A stretch of DNA of 38,686 nt from Candidatus Enterousia sp. (GTDB lineage Bacteria; Pseudomonadota; Alphaproteobacteria; Rs-D84), in contig JAZQUA010000037.1 of the NCBI GenBank assembly GCA_045631065.1, positions 1 through 38,686 on the forward strand, written 5' to 3'. The notes beneath the pieces are model-generated. The model was not told the DNA's origin and did no database searches. It saw only the letters and a program-made list of their open reading frames with translations. Below, piece by piece: positions 2,747 to 36,924 of this stretch (the stretch's first letter is position 1; every line of letters begins with the position of its first letter). A program made the translations under genes and the position numbers.

Positions 2747-2953
2747 ATGTTTGGACGTTTTGGATGGGCAGAAATATTAGTAATCGTTGTACTGGTCGTT
2801 ATCTTGTTCGGTTCTAACAAGATTCCAGGTATGATGAAAAATTTAGCAGATGGGCTAAATGTTTTTAAGAAAGAAATAAAACAGGAAAAACAGCCTGTAA
2901 AAAAGACAACTGTTACAAAAGCGCCCGCTAAGAAGGTTACAAAAAAGAAATAA
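2747..2953 (+). CDS. tatA: Twin-arginine translocase subunit TatA/E
   Basis: MFGRFGWAEILVIVVLVVILFGSNKIPGMMKNLADG matches the TatA TM plus amphipathic helix, followed by a Lys-rich tail. The internal ATG at 2747 is preferred over the track start at 2711 (GGTGA Shine-Dalgarno sequence). Confidence 0.85.
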   Translation: MFGRFGWAEILVIVVLVVILFGSNKIPGMMKNLADGLNVFKKEIKQEKQPVKKTTVTKAPAKKVTKKK

Positions 2954-2981
2954 AAAATCCCACCGAATGGTGGGATTTTTT
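2952..2981. terminator. Bidirectional rho-independent terminator
   Basis: AAAAATCCCACC-GAAT-GGTGGGATTTTT: a 12-bp stem with an A-run and a T-run flanking it. It lies between the convergent tatA and the 79-aa ORF. Confidence 0.8.
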
Positions 2982-3219
2982 ATCGTTGTTTTTGATTGTC
3001 ATTATGTTCTTTTTGGGTTTTGTATATTTGATATAAACGCTGTGCAGAATAAGCGAATCCAGTAATCCACATTAATAAAATGATAAGGGTTTCACGATCA
3101 TAACCTTTATCAATAAGTTGATTTGTATTGTTGACGATTCCAGCTGTGGCCATACCGTTATATACAATATATATAAGCTCTCTGGGGTTAAATAGATTCT
3201 TTTTGTTTTCTGTACTCAT
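2980..3219 (-). CDS. Hypothetical 79-aa protein with one predicted TM helix
   Basis: ORF only, with no recognisable motif and a weak Shine-Dalgarno sequence. Hydrophobic stretch LIILLMWITGFAY. Confidence 0.3.
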   Translation of the reverse strand: MSTENKKNLFNPRELIYIVYNGMATAGIVNNTNQLIDKGYDRETLIILLMWITGFAYSAQRLYQIYKTQKEHNDNQKQR

Positions 3220-3304: not shown

Positions 3305-3332
3305 ATAAAAAAACCGGCATTTGCCGGTTTTT
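3305..3332 (-). terminator. Rho-independent terminator downstream of dksA
   Basis: ACCGGC-ATTT-GCCGGT stem flanked by an A-run and a T-run, abutting the dksA stop at 3331-3333. Confidence 0.75.
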
Positions 3333-15027: not shown

Positions 15028-15035
15028 AAATAATA

Positions 15036-15057
15036 AACCGCCGTGTGCGGTTTTTTT
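15036..15057 (+). terminator. Rho-independent terminator after tRNA-Lys
   Basis: ACCGC-CGTGT-GCGGT followed by T7. Confidence 0.75.
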
Positions 15058-15816: not shown

Positions 15817-15845
15817 ATAAAATCCCACATTTTGTGGGATTTATT
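15817..15845 (-). terminator. Rho-independent terminator after the Dps-like gene
   Basis: ATCCCAC-ATTTT-GTGGGAT with an A-run on the plus strand, which is a T-run on the minus strand. Confidence 0.7.
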
Positions 15846-25052: not shown

Positions 25053-25502
25053 ATGATTTTGGCAGATTTCAAGGCTTTTCCGCGCACAGGACGTTTTTTA
25101 GGTGTTGACTGGGGGTTGACCAGAATAGGGGTTGCAGTATCTGACCCGTCTGGTGAATTTGTTTTTACTAGACCTGTGGTGGTTGTGGCACGTGGTGCAG
25201 CAAATCATGCAGATGTTGTTGCGCAAATTGCCAAGGAAGAAGGGGTTGTTGGTATTGTTGTTGGACTGCCTGTTCGAAATGATGGGACGGAATCTGATAC
25301 AACAAAAATGGTGCGTGATTTTGTAAGTAACTTGGTAACTAAAACAGATTTGCCGATTTGTATGATAGAAGAAAATTTAACGTCTGTTGTTGCCCAGGAA
25401 TCTATGGGGCGGGTCAGGGTGCATGACATTAAACAAAAGTTAGATTCTGAATCAGCACGTGTGATTTTGGAAAATGCAATTGCAATAATAAAACGGGCGT
25501 AG
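25053..25502 (+). CDS. ruvX: YqgF/RuvX putative pre-16S rRNA nuclease (Holliday junction resolvase-like)
   Basis: GVDWGLTRIGVAVSD and GIVVGLP motifs. Length is 149 aa. Confidence 0.9.
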   Translation: MILADFKAFPRTGRFLGVDWGLTRIGVAVSDPSGEFVFTRPVVVVARGAANHADVVAQIAKEEGVVGIVVGLPVRNDGTESDTTKMVRDFVSNLVTKTDLPICMIEENLTSVVAQESMGRVRVHDIKQKLDSESARVILENAIAIIKRA

Positions 25503-25515
25503 TGCCCGTTTTTTA
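25490..25515. terminator. Bidirectional terminator shared by the convergent ruvX and the AI-2E permease gene
   Basis: ACGGGC-GTAGT-GCCCGT flanked by an A-run and a T-run. It overlaps both stop codons. Confidence 0.7.
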
Positions 25516-30231: not shown

Positions 30232-31161
30232 ATGTTTCGTAAAGTTTTGATTTTTGCAATGTTTGCAACTGCAGCAGGCTATTGCTTTGCTGCGGAAACT
30301 CTGCCTCAGGTTGTTACATCAGAAGTTTTTTATGAACAAGAAAAAGTTGTTGATGAAGGACAATGGCAACAGGTTGATACAACAACTTATGATGTCGTAG
30401 AAACGTATGAAACGTACAGGGAAATTCCTGCATGGCCGTTGGTGGGGTCTGATGCTGATGTCGAAGTTTCTTGTACAGGTGGTGTTGCGTCAAAGAAAAA
30501 GCAAAGTGATAATATTCGTATCGTATCCAAAATAGGCACAGATTTGGTGGTTGAAAATAATTTTAATTTGGGTGTTCGTGGCAATGAATGGTCTGGTGGT
30601 GCAAATATGTTGCATGGTACACAAATTCCAGTTGGATTTGCAGACGAATGTAATGATGAATCCGAAATGCCATTGTTGCATCGCGAAGTTTTGGAAGATG
30701 ATGGTGGTAATGTTTTGACTGTATCTCGCAGTGGACGCAAGAATTGTGGTAAATATGCAGATACTTATGATGCTTTTGCTGCAAAAATGGGAATGAAGGT
30801 TGAAAATGTAACCGAAGATACAACTGTTATAGAAGAAGAAACAGAAATAGAAGTTGCAGAAGTTGCAGAGTCTGCGGATGCCGAGGCGCCTGTTGTTATG
30901 ACAGATCAGGTTCGTTCGTGGGTTGTTGCAAATGGCCAGACATTACGTGAAGTTTTACAGAATTGGTGCAACAAAGAAGGCTGGGATTTGGTTTGGGCAA
31001 CATCTCGTGAATATCCAATAGAAGCAAGTGCTGTATTCAAAGGTCGTTTTGTTGATGTTGCATCTGCGTTGGTTCGTAACTTTGGACGTGCGACACCAAT
31101 TCCATATGCCAAGTTTTATAAAGGAAATCGTGTTTTGCTGATTACAACATCAGAAGAATAA
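30232..31161 (+). CDS. Secreted protein with a C-terminal TcpQ/PilL-like domain (candidate secretin partner)
   Basis: GGAAAGGAAG Shine-Dalgarno sequence and a signal peptide (AAGYCFA-AE). An acidic linker follows. The C-terminus WVVANGQTLREVLQNWCNKEGWDLVWATSREYPIEASAVFKGRFVDVASALVRNF...NRVLLITT matches my recollection of the TcpQ-type domain. Confidence 0.55.
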   Translation: MFRKVLIFAMFATAAGYCFAAETLPQVVTSEVFYEQEKVVDEGQWQQVDTTTYDVVETYETYREIPAWPLVGSDADVEVSCTGGVASKKKQSDNIRIVSKIGTDLVVENNFNLGVRGNEWSGGANMLHGTQIPVGFADECNDESEMPLLHREVLEDDGGNVLTVSRSGRKNCGKYADTYDAFAAKMGMKVENVTEDTTVIEEETEIEVAEVAESADAEAPVVMTDQVRSWVVANGQTLREVLQNWCNKEGWDLVWATSREYPIEASAVFKGRFVDVASALVRNFGRATPIPYAKFYKGNRVLLITTSEE

Positions 31162-31195
31162 TCATAAGTATCGTATGACGTAGGAGAATATAAAT

Positions 31196-32821
31196 ATGAT
31201 AAAGCCAATGAAAATCTTTGTAATGTGTGCAGTGTTGTTGGGATTGTCTGGTTGTGCAACCAAAGAATCTGCCAAGGTTGCTGCAACGGTTGATAATGAT
31301 TTTGTAAATGCATATGATGCGTTTGAAATGGCAAAAAATCCACGTGCCAAGGTTGCCAGTGGCGATACTGTTTCTATGTCTGATGGTGTTTGGTTGGGAA
31401 ACAAATCTGTTGTTTTAGAACATCGTAATAATTTGCCATCTATGTTTGAAACAGATACAGGTGTTACTATATTATTAAATGAACCTGTGTCGTTGCAGGT
31501 CTTGGCAAATGATATTTATTCTGTAACAGGAATTCCTGTAAAGATTGATGGGCAAATTTCCGCTGAAAAATTAAAAAAATTGGTTAATGTTGCATATACT
31601 GGAAAGTTGTCTGGTTTATTATCTCAGGTTGCAACAGATTTAGATTTATTGTGGTACTATGATAAGAATTCAATTGTTTTCTATGAAACAGAAACAAAAA
31701 CATTTACTTTGTATGCATTGGGAACCGAAGTTGCATATCAAACATCTGTATCAACAGACAATTCAAATGAAGTTTCATTGGAATCTACATTAAAAGAATG
31801 GGACGAAGTTGAAAGCGCTATTTCTTCAATTATTGGAAAAAGCGATAATGCAGACTTTACTGTATCACGCAGCTTGGGTACAATTACTGTAACTGCATCC
31901 CCATCTGTGTTGGCGCGTGTTGGTGAATATATAGAACGTCAAAATAAAAGATTGTCTCAACTGATAACTATTGATGTAAAGGTTTTGCAAGTAACAATTT
32001 CAAATGATTCTGCGTTTGGTTTGAATTTGGCAGCAGCGATTAATTCAACAGCCGGATTGAATATTGTTGCAAATCCAAAAAATAATCTTGCATCGACAGA
32101 GGCCAGTTCAATGAATATCGCGGTGTTGTCAAATGCAGTATCTGCATTGACGGGTGCAACTCATACCGAAGGTGGTGCAACTGTCGAAGGTGCATATACG
32201 CAAAATGATATTATGAACGGTTCGTTATCTGGTGCTGCGGGTTCAAATGCATTGATTCAATCTTTGGCAAAACAGGGTAAGGTATCATTGGTAACAAATG
32301 TTGGTGTTACAACACGTTCGAATCGTGTTGCACCGGTCAGCAATACACGCACCACAGGTTATATTAAACGTTTCGAATCAAGAAACTTTACAACTGTTGA
32401 ATCAAGTACGGTTGATCAAGACGATTTGGAAACAGGCTTTACAATGCAATTGTTGCCAAATGTATTGGAAAACGGCAAAATTTTGTTGTTGTTCCGTATG
32501 TCTGTTCGTGAATTGTTGCGTATGTCAACACAGACAATTGGCGAAGTAACATTGCAGTTGCCAGAAGTAGAAGAACGTAGCTTTATGCAAGAAGTTATTA
32601 TGGAATCAGGCCAAATGTTGGTTGTGTCCGGATTTGAAAAACAGAAAAGTCAAGATACACGTTATGGTTTGGGCGATCCTGACTTTATGGCATTGTCTGG
32701 TTCACGCGAATCTGCTGCAAGTCGTGAAGTTCTGGTTGTTATCTTGACACCACAGGTATTGATTAGTCCGATGGATACAGAAAGAACTATACAGCAGCAT
32801 TGGGGTGCCCCACTAAACTAA
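31196..32821 (+). CDS. Outer-membrane lipoprotein secretin (type IVb pilus TcpC/BfpB/PilN-like)
   Basis: AGGAG Shine-Dalgarno sequence and lipobox LSGC. C-terminal secretin domain: ITIDVKVLQVTISNDSAFGLNL ... FTMQLLPNVLENGKILLLFRMSV ... LQLPEVEERSFMQEVIMESGQMLVVSGF ... REVLVVILTPQVL. Confidence 0.8.
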   Translation: MIKPMKIFVMCAVLLGLSGCATKESAKVAATVDNDFVNAYDAFEMAKNPRAKVASGDTVSMSDGVWLGNKSVVLEHRNNLPSMFETDTGVTILLNEPVSLQVLANDIYSVTGIPVKIDGQISAEKLKKLVNVAYTGKLSGLLSQVATDLDLLWYYDKNSIVFYETETKTFTLYALGTEVAYQTSVSTDNSNEVSLESTLKEWDEVESAISSIIGKSDNADFTVSRSLGTITVTASPSVLARVGEYIERQNKRLSQLITIDVKVLQVTISNDSAFGLNLAAAINSTAGLNIVANPKNNLASTEASSMNIAVLSNAVSALTGATHTEGGATVEGAYTQNDIMNGSLSGAAGSNALIQSLAKQGKVSLVTNVGVTTRSNRVAPVSNTRTTGYIKRFESRNFTTVESSTVDQDDLETGFTMQLLPNVLENGKILLLFRMSVRELLRMSTQTIGEVTLQLPEVEERSFMQEVIMESGQMLVVSGFEKQKSQDTRYGLGDPDFMALSGSRESAASREVLVVILTPQVLISPMDTERTIQQHWGAPLN

Positions 32822-32850
32822 AAATAAATTATAATAATTCATCTAAAAAC

Positions 32851-32902
32851 AAATCGGGAATCTCATGTAGCGTTTGTACACTACGATTCCCGATTTTTTT
32901 TT
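32851..32902 (+). terminator. Long bulged hairpin plus T-run after the secretin gene (also copy 1 of the repeat array)
   Basis: Outer stem AAATCGGGAATC / GATTCCCGATTT. Inner stem GTAGCGT / ACACTAC with one mismatch. A run of T residues follows. Confidence 0.65.
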
Positions 32903-33076
32903 ATCTAAATCATTCTAATTTATTTTTCGCTAATCACGAACAAGTTGATGGTTCATGTAACTTTTGTACACTACGGTTTCGGGTTTGTGTGTATCTATAC
33001 TATTATCTTTAATTTTTTGCTAATCACGAGTGGGGTGCAGGCAATTTATGTAGTGTCAAGTACACTACATTGCCGG
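32851..33076. repeat. Tandem array of about 90-nt repeats (2.5-3 units) with a conserved core (C/T)ATGTA-N6-8-GTACACTAC
   Basis: GTACACTAC occurs at 32876, 32966 and 33060 (spacing 90 and 94 nt). GCTAATCACGA occurs at 32929 and 33019 (spacing 90 nt). The linker segments TATCTA...TTTTT(C)GCTAATCACGA align between units. Confidence 0.8.
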
Positions 33077-33079
33077 CAT

Positions 33080-33109
33080 AAAAAAATCCCCTTGCTGGGG
33101 AATTTTTTT
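33080..33109. terminator. Bidirectional terminator downstream of the minus-strand 145-aa ORF
   Basis: A7-TCCCC-TTGCT-GGGGA-A2-T7, abutting the stop at 33108-33110. Confidence 0.65.
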
Positions 33110-33545
33110 ATCTGGCTTTTATACTGTTTAATATTATCAGTCGCTTTTCAATTTCGTGTTGTAAATCACGACGTGTTGCATGATTTAAATGTTTTTTGTA
33201 ATCAGTTGTTTTGTATTGTGGAAAAATATATGTTTCTGCTGATGGGTATAATTGAACAACGGGTTTGTTTGTTTCTTTGTCCAGGTATTCAATAATTGTT
33301 GTCGCTATTTTTTCGCCCAGTTTATGTGTGTTTTCAATATGTCTTTGTGCCATTTCGTTGGCATAAGGATTTGGAAATTCTTTGGATTTAATCCAGCCTG
33401 TATTGGTTTCTTGTTTTTGACCGTTAATTGTTATTAAGGCCATTGGGGTAAATTTTTGATACGCAAACAAACCCATATCTATCATGCCGTTAAATGCGAT
33501 GGTATATGTATTTTTCTTCTTTTTGCTGGGTTTCATATTATTCAT
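33108..33545 (-). CDS. Hypothetical 145-aa protein
   Basis: The start is set at MNNMKPSKKKK (33545) because a strong promoter and the parE terminator lie inside the longer track ORF. No recognised motif. Confidence 0.5.
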   Translation of the reverse strand: MNNMKPSKKKKNTYTIAFNGMIDMGLFAYQKFTPMALITINGQKQETNTGWIKSKEFPNPYANEMAQRHIENTHKLGEKIATTIIEYLDKETNKPVVQLYPSAETYIFPQYKTTDYKKHLNHATRRDLQHEIEKRLIILNSIKAR

Positions 33546-36896: not shown

Positions 36897-36924
36897 AAAA
36901 AACCGCCGTGTACGGCGGTTTTTA
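36897..36924. terminator. Bidirectional terminator between the convergent dnaJ and pgsA
   Basis: A-run-ACCGCCG-TGTA-CGGCGGT-T5. Confidence 0.8.

Follow-up and report, generated by a model that had tools for sequence, protein, structure and literature searches.

An intergenic repeat array beside a Candidatus Enterousia secretin gene is one locus of a dispersed, lineage-specific palindrome family

What is the repeated, foldable sequence that lies behind a secretin gene in Candidatus Enterousia, and does it belong to that gene, to its neighbor, or to something wider? The window, i.e., the whole stretch of 38,686 nt analyzed here, contains a secretin gene (ORF 31196-32821, plus strand, with a Pfam Secretin match and a TcpQ-like gene upstream) that forms a convergent pair with a 145-aa ORF on the minus strand, whose stop codon is at 33108-33110. 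The 286-nt gap between the two holds a repeat array, for which an earlier note, made from the sequence alone, had offered three options: an sRNA family, a REP-like element, or a repeated operator for a neighboring gene. We found that the array belongs to a family of palindromes, with a unit of ~108 nt, that is dispersed over many loci and specific to this lineage; of the three options, the REP-like element came closest and the repeated operator had to be given up.

The tandem ~90-nt array with its recurring core was recovered with all the features ascribed to it. It occupies 32820-33077 and comprises one complete and two partial copies sharing a conserved core of 22-23 nt (Table 1). Tandem Repeats Finder reported a period of 90 over 32863-33029 (1.9 copies, 77% matches), and a repeat search detected a 77-nt direct repeat with 90-nt spacing and 78% identity in the secretin gap. 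The motif GTACACTAC is found at 32876, 32966, and 33060 and at no other site in the 38.7 kb, where ~0.10 matches are expected by chance and three copies were reached in 0 of 100 shuffles. The linker GCTAATCACGA occurs at 32929 and 33019; since two or more matches also arose in 6 of 100 shuffles, its recurrence is weak evidence when taken alone.

On the window's plus strand, the array was predicted to fold at -80.8 kcal/mol (z = -6.9), and the prediction reproduced the hairpins that had been described. Thus, the two-tier hairpin of copies 1 and 3, with a G:C to C:G swap that keeps the pairing, could be read in both the sequence and the fold: the outer stems (CGGGAATC/GATTCCCG in copy 1, GGCAAT/ATTGCC in copy 3) differ yet are complementary, and the bulge (TCAT/TTAT) and the inner stem GTAG(C/T)GT/ACACTAC are both present. 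The hairpin of copy 1 is real but had been drawn too short, as the palindrome has arms of 43 nt each (32820-32862 and 32885-32927) that are 86% complementary. Copy 2 had been credited with a decayed outer stem, which is not what the relatives indicate: its right arm, GGTTTCGGG, has an intact partner, CCCGAAACC, in the sister strains L002-L004, and on this comparison the left arm in the window is best read as replaced by copy 1 plus linker, not decayed by mutation. With a covariance model of the family, the scores were 115.8 bits for copy 1 (E = 1e-26), 30.6 bits for copy 2 (E = 2e-4), and 26.3 bits for copy 3 (E = 0.003), and nothing in the rest of the window scored beyond these three units.

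Table 1. Features of the secretin-145-aa ORF gap, in window coordinates
Feature	Position	Strand	Basis or remark
Secretin TAA stop codon	32819..32821	+	Overlapped by the left end of unit 1; ORF call, Pfam Secretin
Unit 1 left outer arm, type A, AAAAATAAATTATAATAATTCATCT, ending in ATCT	32820..32844	+	Alignment columns 5-28 conserved; inverted repeat
Unit 1 middle stem, left arm, AAAAACAAATCGGGAATC	32845..32862	+	Pairs with 32885-32902; variable, compensated tier
Core 1, TCATGTAGCGTTTGTACACTAC, bulge TCAT and mini-hairpin GTAGCGT/ACACTAC	32863..32884	+	Commonest family variant (50/164 instances)
Unit 1 middle stem, right arm, GATTCCCGATTTTTTTTT	32885..32902	+	Inverted repeat, predicted fold
Unit 1 right outer arm, ATCTAAATCATTCTAATTTATTTTT	32903..32927	+	Its ATCT is in direct orientation with the left-arm ATCT
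Linker 1, CGCTAATCACGA	32928..32939	+	Replaces the next unit's left outer arm in arrays
Junction before core 2, ACAAGTTGATGGT	32940..32952	+	No pairing with unit 2 right arm; sister strains have CCCGAAACC
Core 2, TCATGTAACTTTTGTACACTAC	32953..32974	+	Sequence, core pattern
Unit 2 middle stem, right arm, GGTTTCGGGTTTGTGTGT	32975..32992	+	Partner lost here; CCCGAAACC/GGTTTCGGG intact in L002, L003, L004
Unit 2 right outer arm, type B, ATCTATACTATTATCTTTAATTTTTT	32993..33018	+	Sequence, family alignment
Linker 2, GCTAATCACGA	33019..33029	+	Repeat of linker
Unit 3 left stem, GCAGGCAAT	33037..33045	+	Pairs with 33069-33077 in predicted fold
Core 3, TTATGTAGTGTCAAGTACACTAC, 23 nt, perfect inner stem	33046..33068	+	Sequence, core pattern
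Unit 3 right stem, ATTGCCGGC	33069..33077	+	Unit cut off, without right outer arm
Native bidirectional intrinsic terminator, AAAAAAATCCCCTTGCTGGGGAATTTTTTT	33080..33109	.	Overlaps the 145-aa ORF stop; outside the repeat family

Two familiar kinds of repeat were considered for this gap and rejected. A DNA-uptake sequence, which the pilus secretin next door might suggest, does not fit a 9-mer confined to this one gap of the 38.7-kb window, and a CRISPR array does not fit inter-core sequences that are the element's own arms, mutually complementary and recurring across loci.

The earlier note had proposed a pattern search for the core across relatives. When one genome per species was scanned with the pattern TCATGTARNNT(2-3)GTACACTAC, at least 118 stretches matched, at least 112 of them in 55 assemblies of Candidatus Enterousia or uncultured Alphaproteobacteria, and the host assemblies were those of animal-gut bacteria; the other six matches were isolated, in unrelated taxa, and without arms. 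The loci analyzed held 164 core instances, while nhmmer returned 242 matches, a figure that includes opposite-strand matches of the same copies. Candidatus Enterousia belongs to the alphaproteobacterial order Rs-D84, with genomes of <1 Mb and ~90% coding density (PMC12306168). A MAG of ~0.9 Mb carries at least 6-8 loci with the strict core, and more with variant cores, the density of arrays being about one per 40-80 kb. At gathering score, Rfam recognized only two tRNAs in the window, and the array region attracted at best far-sub-threshold models of long-hairpin miRNA precursors. The plasmid and phage collections contained no match to the family, and among viral contigs there was a single chance match, located within a coding-like region and lacking the arms. 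Nothing on repeats was found in the Enterousia literature, literature searches gave no comparable element, and the family appears to be so far undescribed.

A full unit is an imperfect palindrome of ~108 nt that folds into a three-tier hairpin. The outer arms are AT-rich and conserved, bear directly oriented ATCT motifs, and fall into two principal types, A (AAATAAATTATAATAATTCATCT ... ATCTAAATCATTCTAATTTATTT) and B (AAAATAAAATCTAATGGCATATCT ... ATCTATACCATTATCTTTTATTTT). The middle stem, ~18 bp long, is variable in sequence with its pairing kept, and 81 distinct left arms were counted in 105 units. The apex is formed by the conserved core of 22-23 nt, in which a bulge of 4 nt accompanies a GTAG...CTAC mini-hairpin; the apical pairs TGTA/TACA are invariant in 106/106 units. 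The core also holds an ATG-TAG or ATG-TAA "start-stop" at the hairpin apex, which some core variants lack.

The note had further suggested building a covariance model and looking for covariation in additional copies. In 106 full units, 95.0% of the cells were paired, a value reached by 0 of 500 shuffles, compared to 74.7% after shuffling; the covariation score was 0.543, compared to 0.167 for shuffles and no more than 0.106 for slid-partner controls, and compensatory double changes were present at 24 of 32 pairs, several columns displaying four pair types. The arms gave 92 distinct arm pairs, in which the pairing was 88% Watson-Crick. Compensation can also be followed in place: at the rpsM-rpsK locus, GTTGTT/AACAAC (L021) stands against GATGTT/AACATC (L057), and in the sister strains L002-L004 the stem CCCGAAACC/GGTTTCGGG differs from the copy 1 stem by four compensatory double changes in nine pairs. 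The claim of a structured, repeated element whose pairing is maintained by compensatory change was therefore borne out by the family units. About 30 orthologous loci underlie all counts over units and arrays, so the cells are not independent of one another. Moreover, covariation alone is no proof of RNA, since arm-to-arm correction by template switching could keep the pairing without selection.

A unit may stand alone or be joined head-to-tail with others, the longest array (L082) having five. Within arrays, a linker stands in place of the following unit's left outer arm; it is often CGCTAATCACGA, which recurs in arrays and as a 3' tail (e.g., in L020, L030, L032, L092, L108, L115, and L121), and other kinds include GCAAGGGG-type mini-hairpins and truncated left arms. 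A few copies (L027, L116, L018) have the core inverted relative to the arms. A nested insertion, with the ATCT motifs on either side of the inner hairpin as target duplications and the outer arms as a separate palindrome, was rejected, as no clean empty outer palindrome was seen in 0.9 Mb.

The occupancy of a site varies among strains. Five contigs (L001-L005) encode an identical secretin protein and differ in the gap behind it: L001 is an empty site, in which only the bidirectional terminator is left in the gap and the 145-aa ORF still adjoins it, L002-L004 each carry two units, both complete in L002, and the window has three, its unit 1 being matched by L005. The full right arm of unit 3, ATTGCCGGCACTACTTTTATCTAAATCATTCTAATTTATTTT, is retained in L002, whereas in the window, L003, and L004, GGCA is joined straight to the terminator. 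Further empty/filled orthologous pairs are L104 vs. L021 and L049, L086 vs. L111, and L025 vs. L124; at two empty/filled loci, the native terminator was kept downstream of the insert, and at one, the gene's last codons were replaced. Direct repeats at the clean pairs are A/T-rich and measure 6-7 nt (L001/L002) or 9-10 nt (L104/L049), but they are indistinguishable from microhomology or palindromic ends, most copies have none, and no consistent target-site duplication emerged among the empty/filled comparisons. We infer from these sequences that the three units of the window derive from an L002-like ancestor with two. The site would first have been a bare terminator as in L001; two units would then have been inserted, giving the L002 state; a deletion from the last unit's right stem to the terminator could have produced the L003/L004 state; and replacement of the first unit's left arm by a full type-A unit plus linker, via recombination within the core, would have led to the window. 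Homologous recombination and deletion alone could also yield the differences between strains.

We next consider where the units lie, using gene contexts derived from simple ORF calls on all loci. Of 110 arrays, 104 had an upstream gene, i.e., one on the 5' side of the core strand, that was co-oriented with the unit. Where the flanking genes were in tandem, the co-oriented upstream gene prevailed by 41 to 4, while convergent contexts accounted for 46 arrays and divergent ones for two. In ~85% of arrays, the left end of the unit overlaps the TAA stop of the co-oriented gene and, likewise in ~85%, stop codon and core are 35-47 nt apart, a distance equal to the length of the left arm. The stop was TAA in 85 of 88 arrays and occurred in three registers, at or inside the left arm, so that in some genes the element itself supplies the final codons. 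About 30 orthologous gene ends are occupied, among them the rpsM-rpsK spacer and the ends of rpsK and efp, and at one and the same gene end the arm and stem types often differ between species.

Copy 1 has the A-tract, GC stem, and T-tract seen in native terminators of this genome. It is plausible that it terminates the secretin transcript, as the note had thought, yet a canonical bidirectional terminator stands just downstream, at 33080-33109. Across the family, the terminator form fits unit 1 and AAAAACAAATCGGG-type stems, whereas most stem types are followed by ATCTA... and not by a T-run. A canonical terminator-like site within 150 nt downstream was present for 29% of arrays and 35% of element-free ORF ends, values that do not discriminate between the two. 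Since units sit between rpsM and rpsK in the ribosomal-protein gene cluster, strong termination is not a general rule.

The orientation of the units follows replication as well as transcription. GC skew on the core strand was positive in 72 of 73 loci. When the skew was split into a coding-strand component and a residual, the residual, with the coding-strand effect removed, was still positive in 46 of 48 loci (mean +0.14), and only 57% of coding bases were on the core strand. The window's baseline skew behaves alike, at ~+0.23 over plus-strand genes and about -0.03 to +0.12 over minus-strand genes. Arrays on one contig point the same way, apart from one odd copy. If GC skew is interpreted in the usual manner, the G-rich core strand is the leading strand, and the units would then lie behind leading-strand genes almost without exception. 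This polarity is not what a function confined to the mRNA would predict, because lagging-strand genes should then bear units in their own orientation.

From the distribution and structure of the copies, we consider it probable that the units form a dispersed, REP/MITE-like palindrome family that spreads strand-specifically between gene ends and acts as a co-transcribed 3' hairpin. The unit would be a non-autonomous element that is copied or recombined between gene ends in a strand-specific manner tied to the replication fork, and its spread possibly acts on single-stranded hairpin DNA. Because it directly follows a stop codon, a unit presumably ends up at the 3' end of the transcript of the upstream gene, where the GC-rich middle stem would most likely make it a 3' hairpin serving as an exonuclease barrier or a partial terminator, not an obligate terminator. 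That the units form an sRNA family is unproven; they have no conserved promoter and are situated in the 3' UTR of the gene upstream. As for a mobilizing enzyme, tblastn with YafM and IS200 TnpA as queries against 0.9 Mb of loci that carry the element gave no RAYT or Y1 transposase match better than E = 0.77, which is a weak negative. The 145-aa neighbor was rejected as a partner protein, since it has no Pfam or NCBIfam match and no HUH motif and is also found beside the empty site.

The two strands of the units do not fold equally well. The strand opposite the core (mRNA) strand was predicted to fold better in 127 of 151 units (-42.4 vs. -34.8 kcal/mol, a mean difference of 7.6), and for the window array the minus strand reached -89.0 kcal/mol (z = -10.45), compared to the plus-strand value given above. 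This difference is due to a small set of conserved mismatches. On the core strand, the outer arms had 161 A.C cells vs. 14 G.T cells; three outer-arm pair columns show T-A, C.A, and C-G on the core strand, which become U-A, U.G, and C-G on the opposite strand, the conserved ATCT/ATCT becomes tandem G.A there, and a C.A in the commonest core on the plus strand is a U.G on the minus strand. In the variable middle stem, by contrast, G.T outnumbered A.C on the core strand by 70 to 32 in one count and by 65 to 52 in another, the latter no significant strand bias (p = 0.27). A C-to-T bias is expected on the leading strand. The middle-stem excess of G.T fits this bias, and because the outer-arm mismatches oppose it, they look conserved and not mutational. 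It may be the opposite strand that functions, as RNA or as single-stranded DNA; alternatively, the irregularities could be recognition features of the core strand. A simple 3'-UTR hairpin model does not predict the folding advantage of the opposite strand.

A bolder reading, which we regard as possible but tentative, is that the units represent a new class of hairpin element that homes to the TAA stops of leading-strand genes, by a mechanism that uses single strands or depends on the replication fork, and is kept as polar "gene-end punctuation" in very small genomes. If this were true, head-on transcripts would meet a strong hairpin, owing to the conserved G.U and tandem G.A pairs, while in the gene's own mRNA it would be weaker, so that operon read-through is spared.

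It is also conceivable, although we think it unlikely, that the functional molecule is the opposite-strand RNA itself (in the window, the minus strand, which reads GTAGTGTAC...TACATGA), either as a family of small antisense RNAs or as a polar terminator that would halt transcription arriving head-on or in antisense precisely where leading-strand genes have their stop codon. The better fold of that strand, the three outer-arm columns that give only G-C, G.U, and A-U on it, the tandem G.A and U.G pairs, and mismatches that look conserved against the C-to-T bias would all be accounted for, and half of the arrays lie between convergent genes. However, the opposite side carries no conserved promoter, tails and linkers are of several unrelated kinds, and Rfam has no match; the wobble pairs of the variable stem are not biased toward it in either count; 41 arrays lie between co-directional genes, with no known transcription from that strand; and the asymmetry amounts to about five fixed mismatches inherited by all copies.

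We assign a similarly low probability to a site that works at the DNA level, in which the core and ATCT would be bound, in replication-oriented fashion, by a chromosomal protein, e.g., one of the nucleoid, gyrase, or recombinase type. Such a site would resemble polar chromosome-organizing motifs or the gyrase and IHF binding of REP/BIME, with the hairpin potential as a by-product or serving cruciform or single-stranded DNA recognition. This would suit the near-total polarity with respect to GC skew, the direct and not inverted ATCT on both palindrome arms, the invariant TGTA...TACA of the core, and the roughly equal tolerance of G.T and A.C in the middle stem, as if neither RNA strand were selected. 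On the other hand, one array per 40-80 kb is a low density for a chromosome-orienting motif, and neither the need for a complementary 18-bp variable stem nor the abutment on stop codons is explained. We know of no candidate protein that would bind such a site.

Very improbable, in our view, are integron attC-like recombination sites marking the 3' ends of mobile gene cassettes. Like attC sites, the units are imperfect palindromes (of ~110 nt) with conserved ends and a variable center, they lie directly 3' of ORFs in one orientation, and their mismatches tell the strands apart and could thereby encode strand choice. Unlike attC sites, they come without cassettes: no ORFs lie between the units of arrays, and the flanks are housekeeping genes in conserved synteny (secretin, rpsM/rpsK, efp). 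The R/L boxes are lacking as well, the R''/R' core sites (RYYYAAC/GTTRRRY) being absent from the arms, and no integrase was seen in the window.

That the array is simply a locally duplicated secretin terminator, or a repeated operator for the 145-aa protein, is scarcely credible: its place directly 3' of the secretin gene and the terminator-like tracts of copy 1 would agree with this, but the unit follows ~30 unrelated genes in 55 genomes, the empty-site strain keeps both flanking genes and the native terminator, and the supposed operator's 145-aa ORF belongs to no Pfam or NCBIfam family.

The chief points of interest of the palindrome family are thus its overlap with stop codons, its replication polarity, and its unusually clean covariation. 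A paired stem that is free to change, stop-codon overlap, and near-total replication polarity are rarely found jointly, and these three properties make RNA function, DNA-level function, and selfish spread testable alternatives. The family persists across at least 55 species-level genomes that are streamlined to <1 Mb, which offers a clean system for studying the survival of palindromic repeats. In practical terms, a covariance model is ready for a structured motif absent from Rfam, and the variable copy number provides a strain-typing marker for an uncultured gut lineage.

Several known systems share some of these properties. The mycobacterial MIRUs are tandem units of 40-100 nt between operon genes, oriented with the genes, whose ends overlap the flanking stop and start codons; they are non-palindromic and contain small ORFs, whereas the present family forms a hairpin and overlaps only the stop codon. 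Rickettsia palindromic elements (RPE) and Correia/NEMIS, ERIC, and BOX elements are palindromic or modular repeats of 100-150 nt in small or compact genomes that are co-transcribed and show presence/absence polymorphism, and they resemble the family as palindromic repeats of small genomes with variable presence. RPEs, however, insert in frame inside genes, and Correia elements have TA duplications and IHF sites; to our knowledge, none of the RPE, Correia, ERIC, or BOX elements combines a compensated variable stem, stop-codon overlap, and replication polarity. A MITE, as a derivative of a DDE transposon, would have terminal inverted repeats and a target-site duplication of fixed length; in the family, the outer arms are inverted repeats, the direct repeats measure 6-7 nt at one empty/filled pair and 9-10 nt at another, and most copies show none.

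The likeness to REP, BIME, and REPIN sequences is broader, as these too are short intergenic palindromes at gene 3' ends and in operons, single or in clusters of modules and linkers, vertically persistent and variable in occupancy. The apex of the family, a small hairpin with GTAG...CTAC feet, resembles the "double foot" REPs, which have the form GT[AG]G ... C[TC]AC (PMC6006769); it is a 7-bp hairpin with a 5' foot GTAG (or GTAA) and a 3' foot CTAC. REPs near stop codons affect translation and mRNA stability (cited in PMC12306157), and in E. coli a stop is found at a distance of 15 nt or less for ~11% of REPs (PMC12306157), in contrast to the stop overlap of ~85% of the family's arrays. Unlike in REPs, the GTAG hairpin, with GTAG itself paired, is nested as the loop of a ~45-bp hairpin, the apex and the outermost arms are conserved while the stem between them varies, the clusters run head-to-tail and do not alternate, and the orientation is almost fully locked to GC skew, and no RAYT gene, which in REP systems is usually flanked by the repeats, was found in the 0.9 Mb of loci.

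Elements of the IS200/IS605 family use the lagging-strand template for insertion, on the 3' side of a short target, and their orientation is tied to replication (PMC6006769). They and the gene-less PATEs share with the family a dependence on hairpins, this replication-tied orientation, and the lack of a regular target-site duplication. They differ in having two separate subterminal hairpins, whereas in the family one hairpin spans the whole element, and in their Y1 transposase and defined 4-5 nt target: no such transposase was found in the 0.9 Mb of family loci, no such target or cleavage site was identified, and the junction with the TAA is not sharp, since it falls in three registers and the number of A residues varies. 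By analogy, insertion of the IS200/IS605 type would nevertheless be the closest precedent for the replication-locked orientation of this palindrome family.

Copies of the dispersed hairpin repeat family occur at loci from other Enterousia or uncultured alphaproteobacterial genomes, including a ribosomal-protein locus, where one member lies between rpsM and rpsK (see the table). This rpsM-rpsK copy is kept in six species and missing from one locus (L104), and at another (L057) it carries an in-place compensatory change. The biggest array seen, with five cores downstream of efp, has core spacings that alternate between 76 and 102 nt.

Within the core, an ATG is followed at once by TAG or TAA (32865-32870, 32955-32960 and 33048-33053 in the window), a pattern present in most family members. 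Where the core varies between G and A, the triplet after ATG stays a stop codon; the pattern is broken in some core variants, which read ATGTAT or ATGTAC. In rare copies the core has the opposite orientation with respect to the outer arms, and AGAT, not ATCT, stands on both sides. Recombination of one hairpin arm with the other would yield such copies. In L102 a core is flanked by arms unrelated to types A and B, and L067 has that left arm alone; this is a half-deleted copy or else another subfamily.

Coordinates of family members and of features in the window; each terminator consists of an A-tract, a GC stem and a T-tract
Feature	Sequence	Position	Strand	Context
Family member	L049	1243-1348		between rpsM and rpsK
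Family member	L049	1790-2067		directly 3' of rpsK
Five-core array	L082	3961-4338		downstream of efp
Inverted core	L027	3469-3582
Inverted core	L116	5709-5822
Inverted core	L018	5155-5256
Core between arms unrelated to types A and B (ATGCCAATCGGTTCGCGGTGTTGCGATTTGAACAACC ...)	L102	5630-5702
Left arm (ATGCCAATCGGTTCGCGGTGTTGCGATTTGAACAACC ...), no core	L067	6879-6922
Canonical bidirectional terminator	window	2950-2983
Canonical bidirectional terminator	window	3309-3332
Canonical bidirectional terminator	window	15035-15053
Canonical bidirectional terminator	window	15820-15842
Canonical bidirectional terminator	window	25490-25512
Canonical bidirectional terminator	window	33080-33109
Canonical bidirectional terminator	window	36898-36923
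145-aa ORF	window	33108-33545	-	downstream of parE/gyrB-like gene

Canonical bidirectional terminators are the usual gene-end signal of the window's genome. Unit 1, a family copy beside the secretin gene, has a middle stem of the AAAAACAAATCGGG type that resembles such a terminator with the core lying in the loop. Just 3' of the array at 3726-3943 of L052 (core strand), the linker motif extends as ACGCTAATCATGAATTTGTGATTAGTG and then a T-run, together a small terminator-like hairpin, so the linker motif GCTAATCACGA may represent what is left, on the 5' side, of a hairpin since lost.

Plus-strand GC skew is strongly positive over the window (1-38686): it is about +0.23 where genes lie on the plus strand and ranges from about -0.03 to +0.12 where they lie on the minus strand. 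The window therefore lies on one replichore, and its replication-linked skew is large and added to the coding-strand effect.

The 145-aa ORF had no match in Pfam or NCBIfam and is kept in all five sister contigs encoding an identical secretin, the repeat-free contig among them. At 30232-32821, a TcpQ-like gene precedes the secretin gene. Type IV pilus genes were reported in a study of Enterousia for another lineage only, UBA9783; in NCBIfam the secretin matches the PilN type IVb pilus secretin best, with a score under that family's cutoff.
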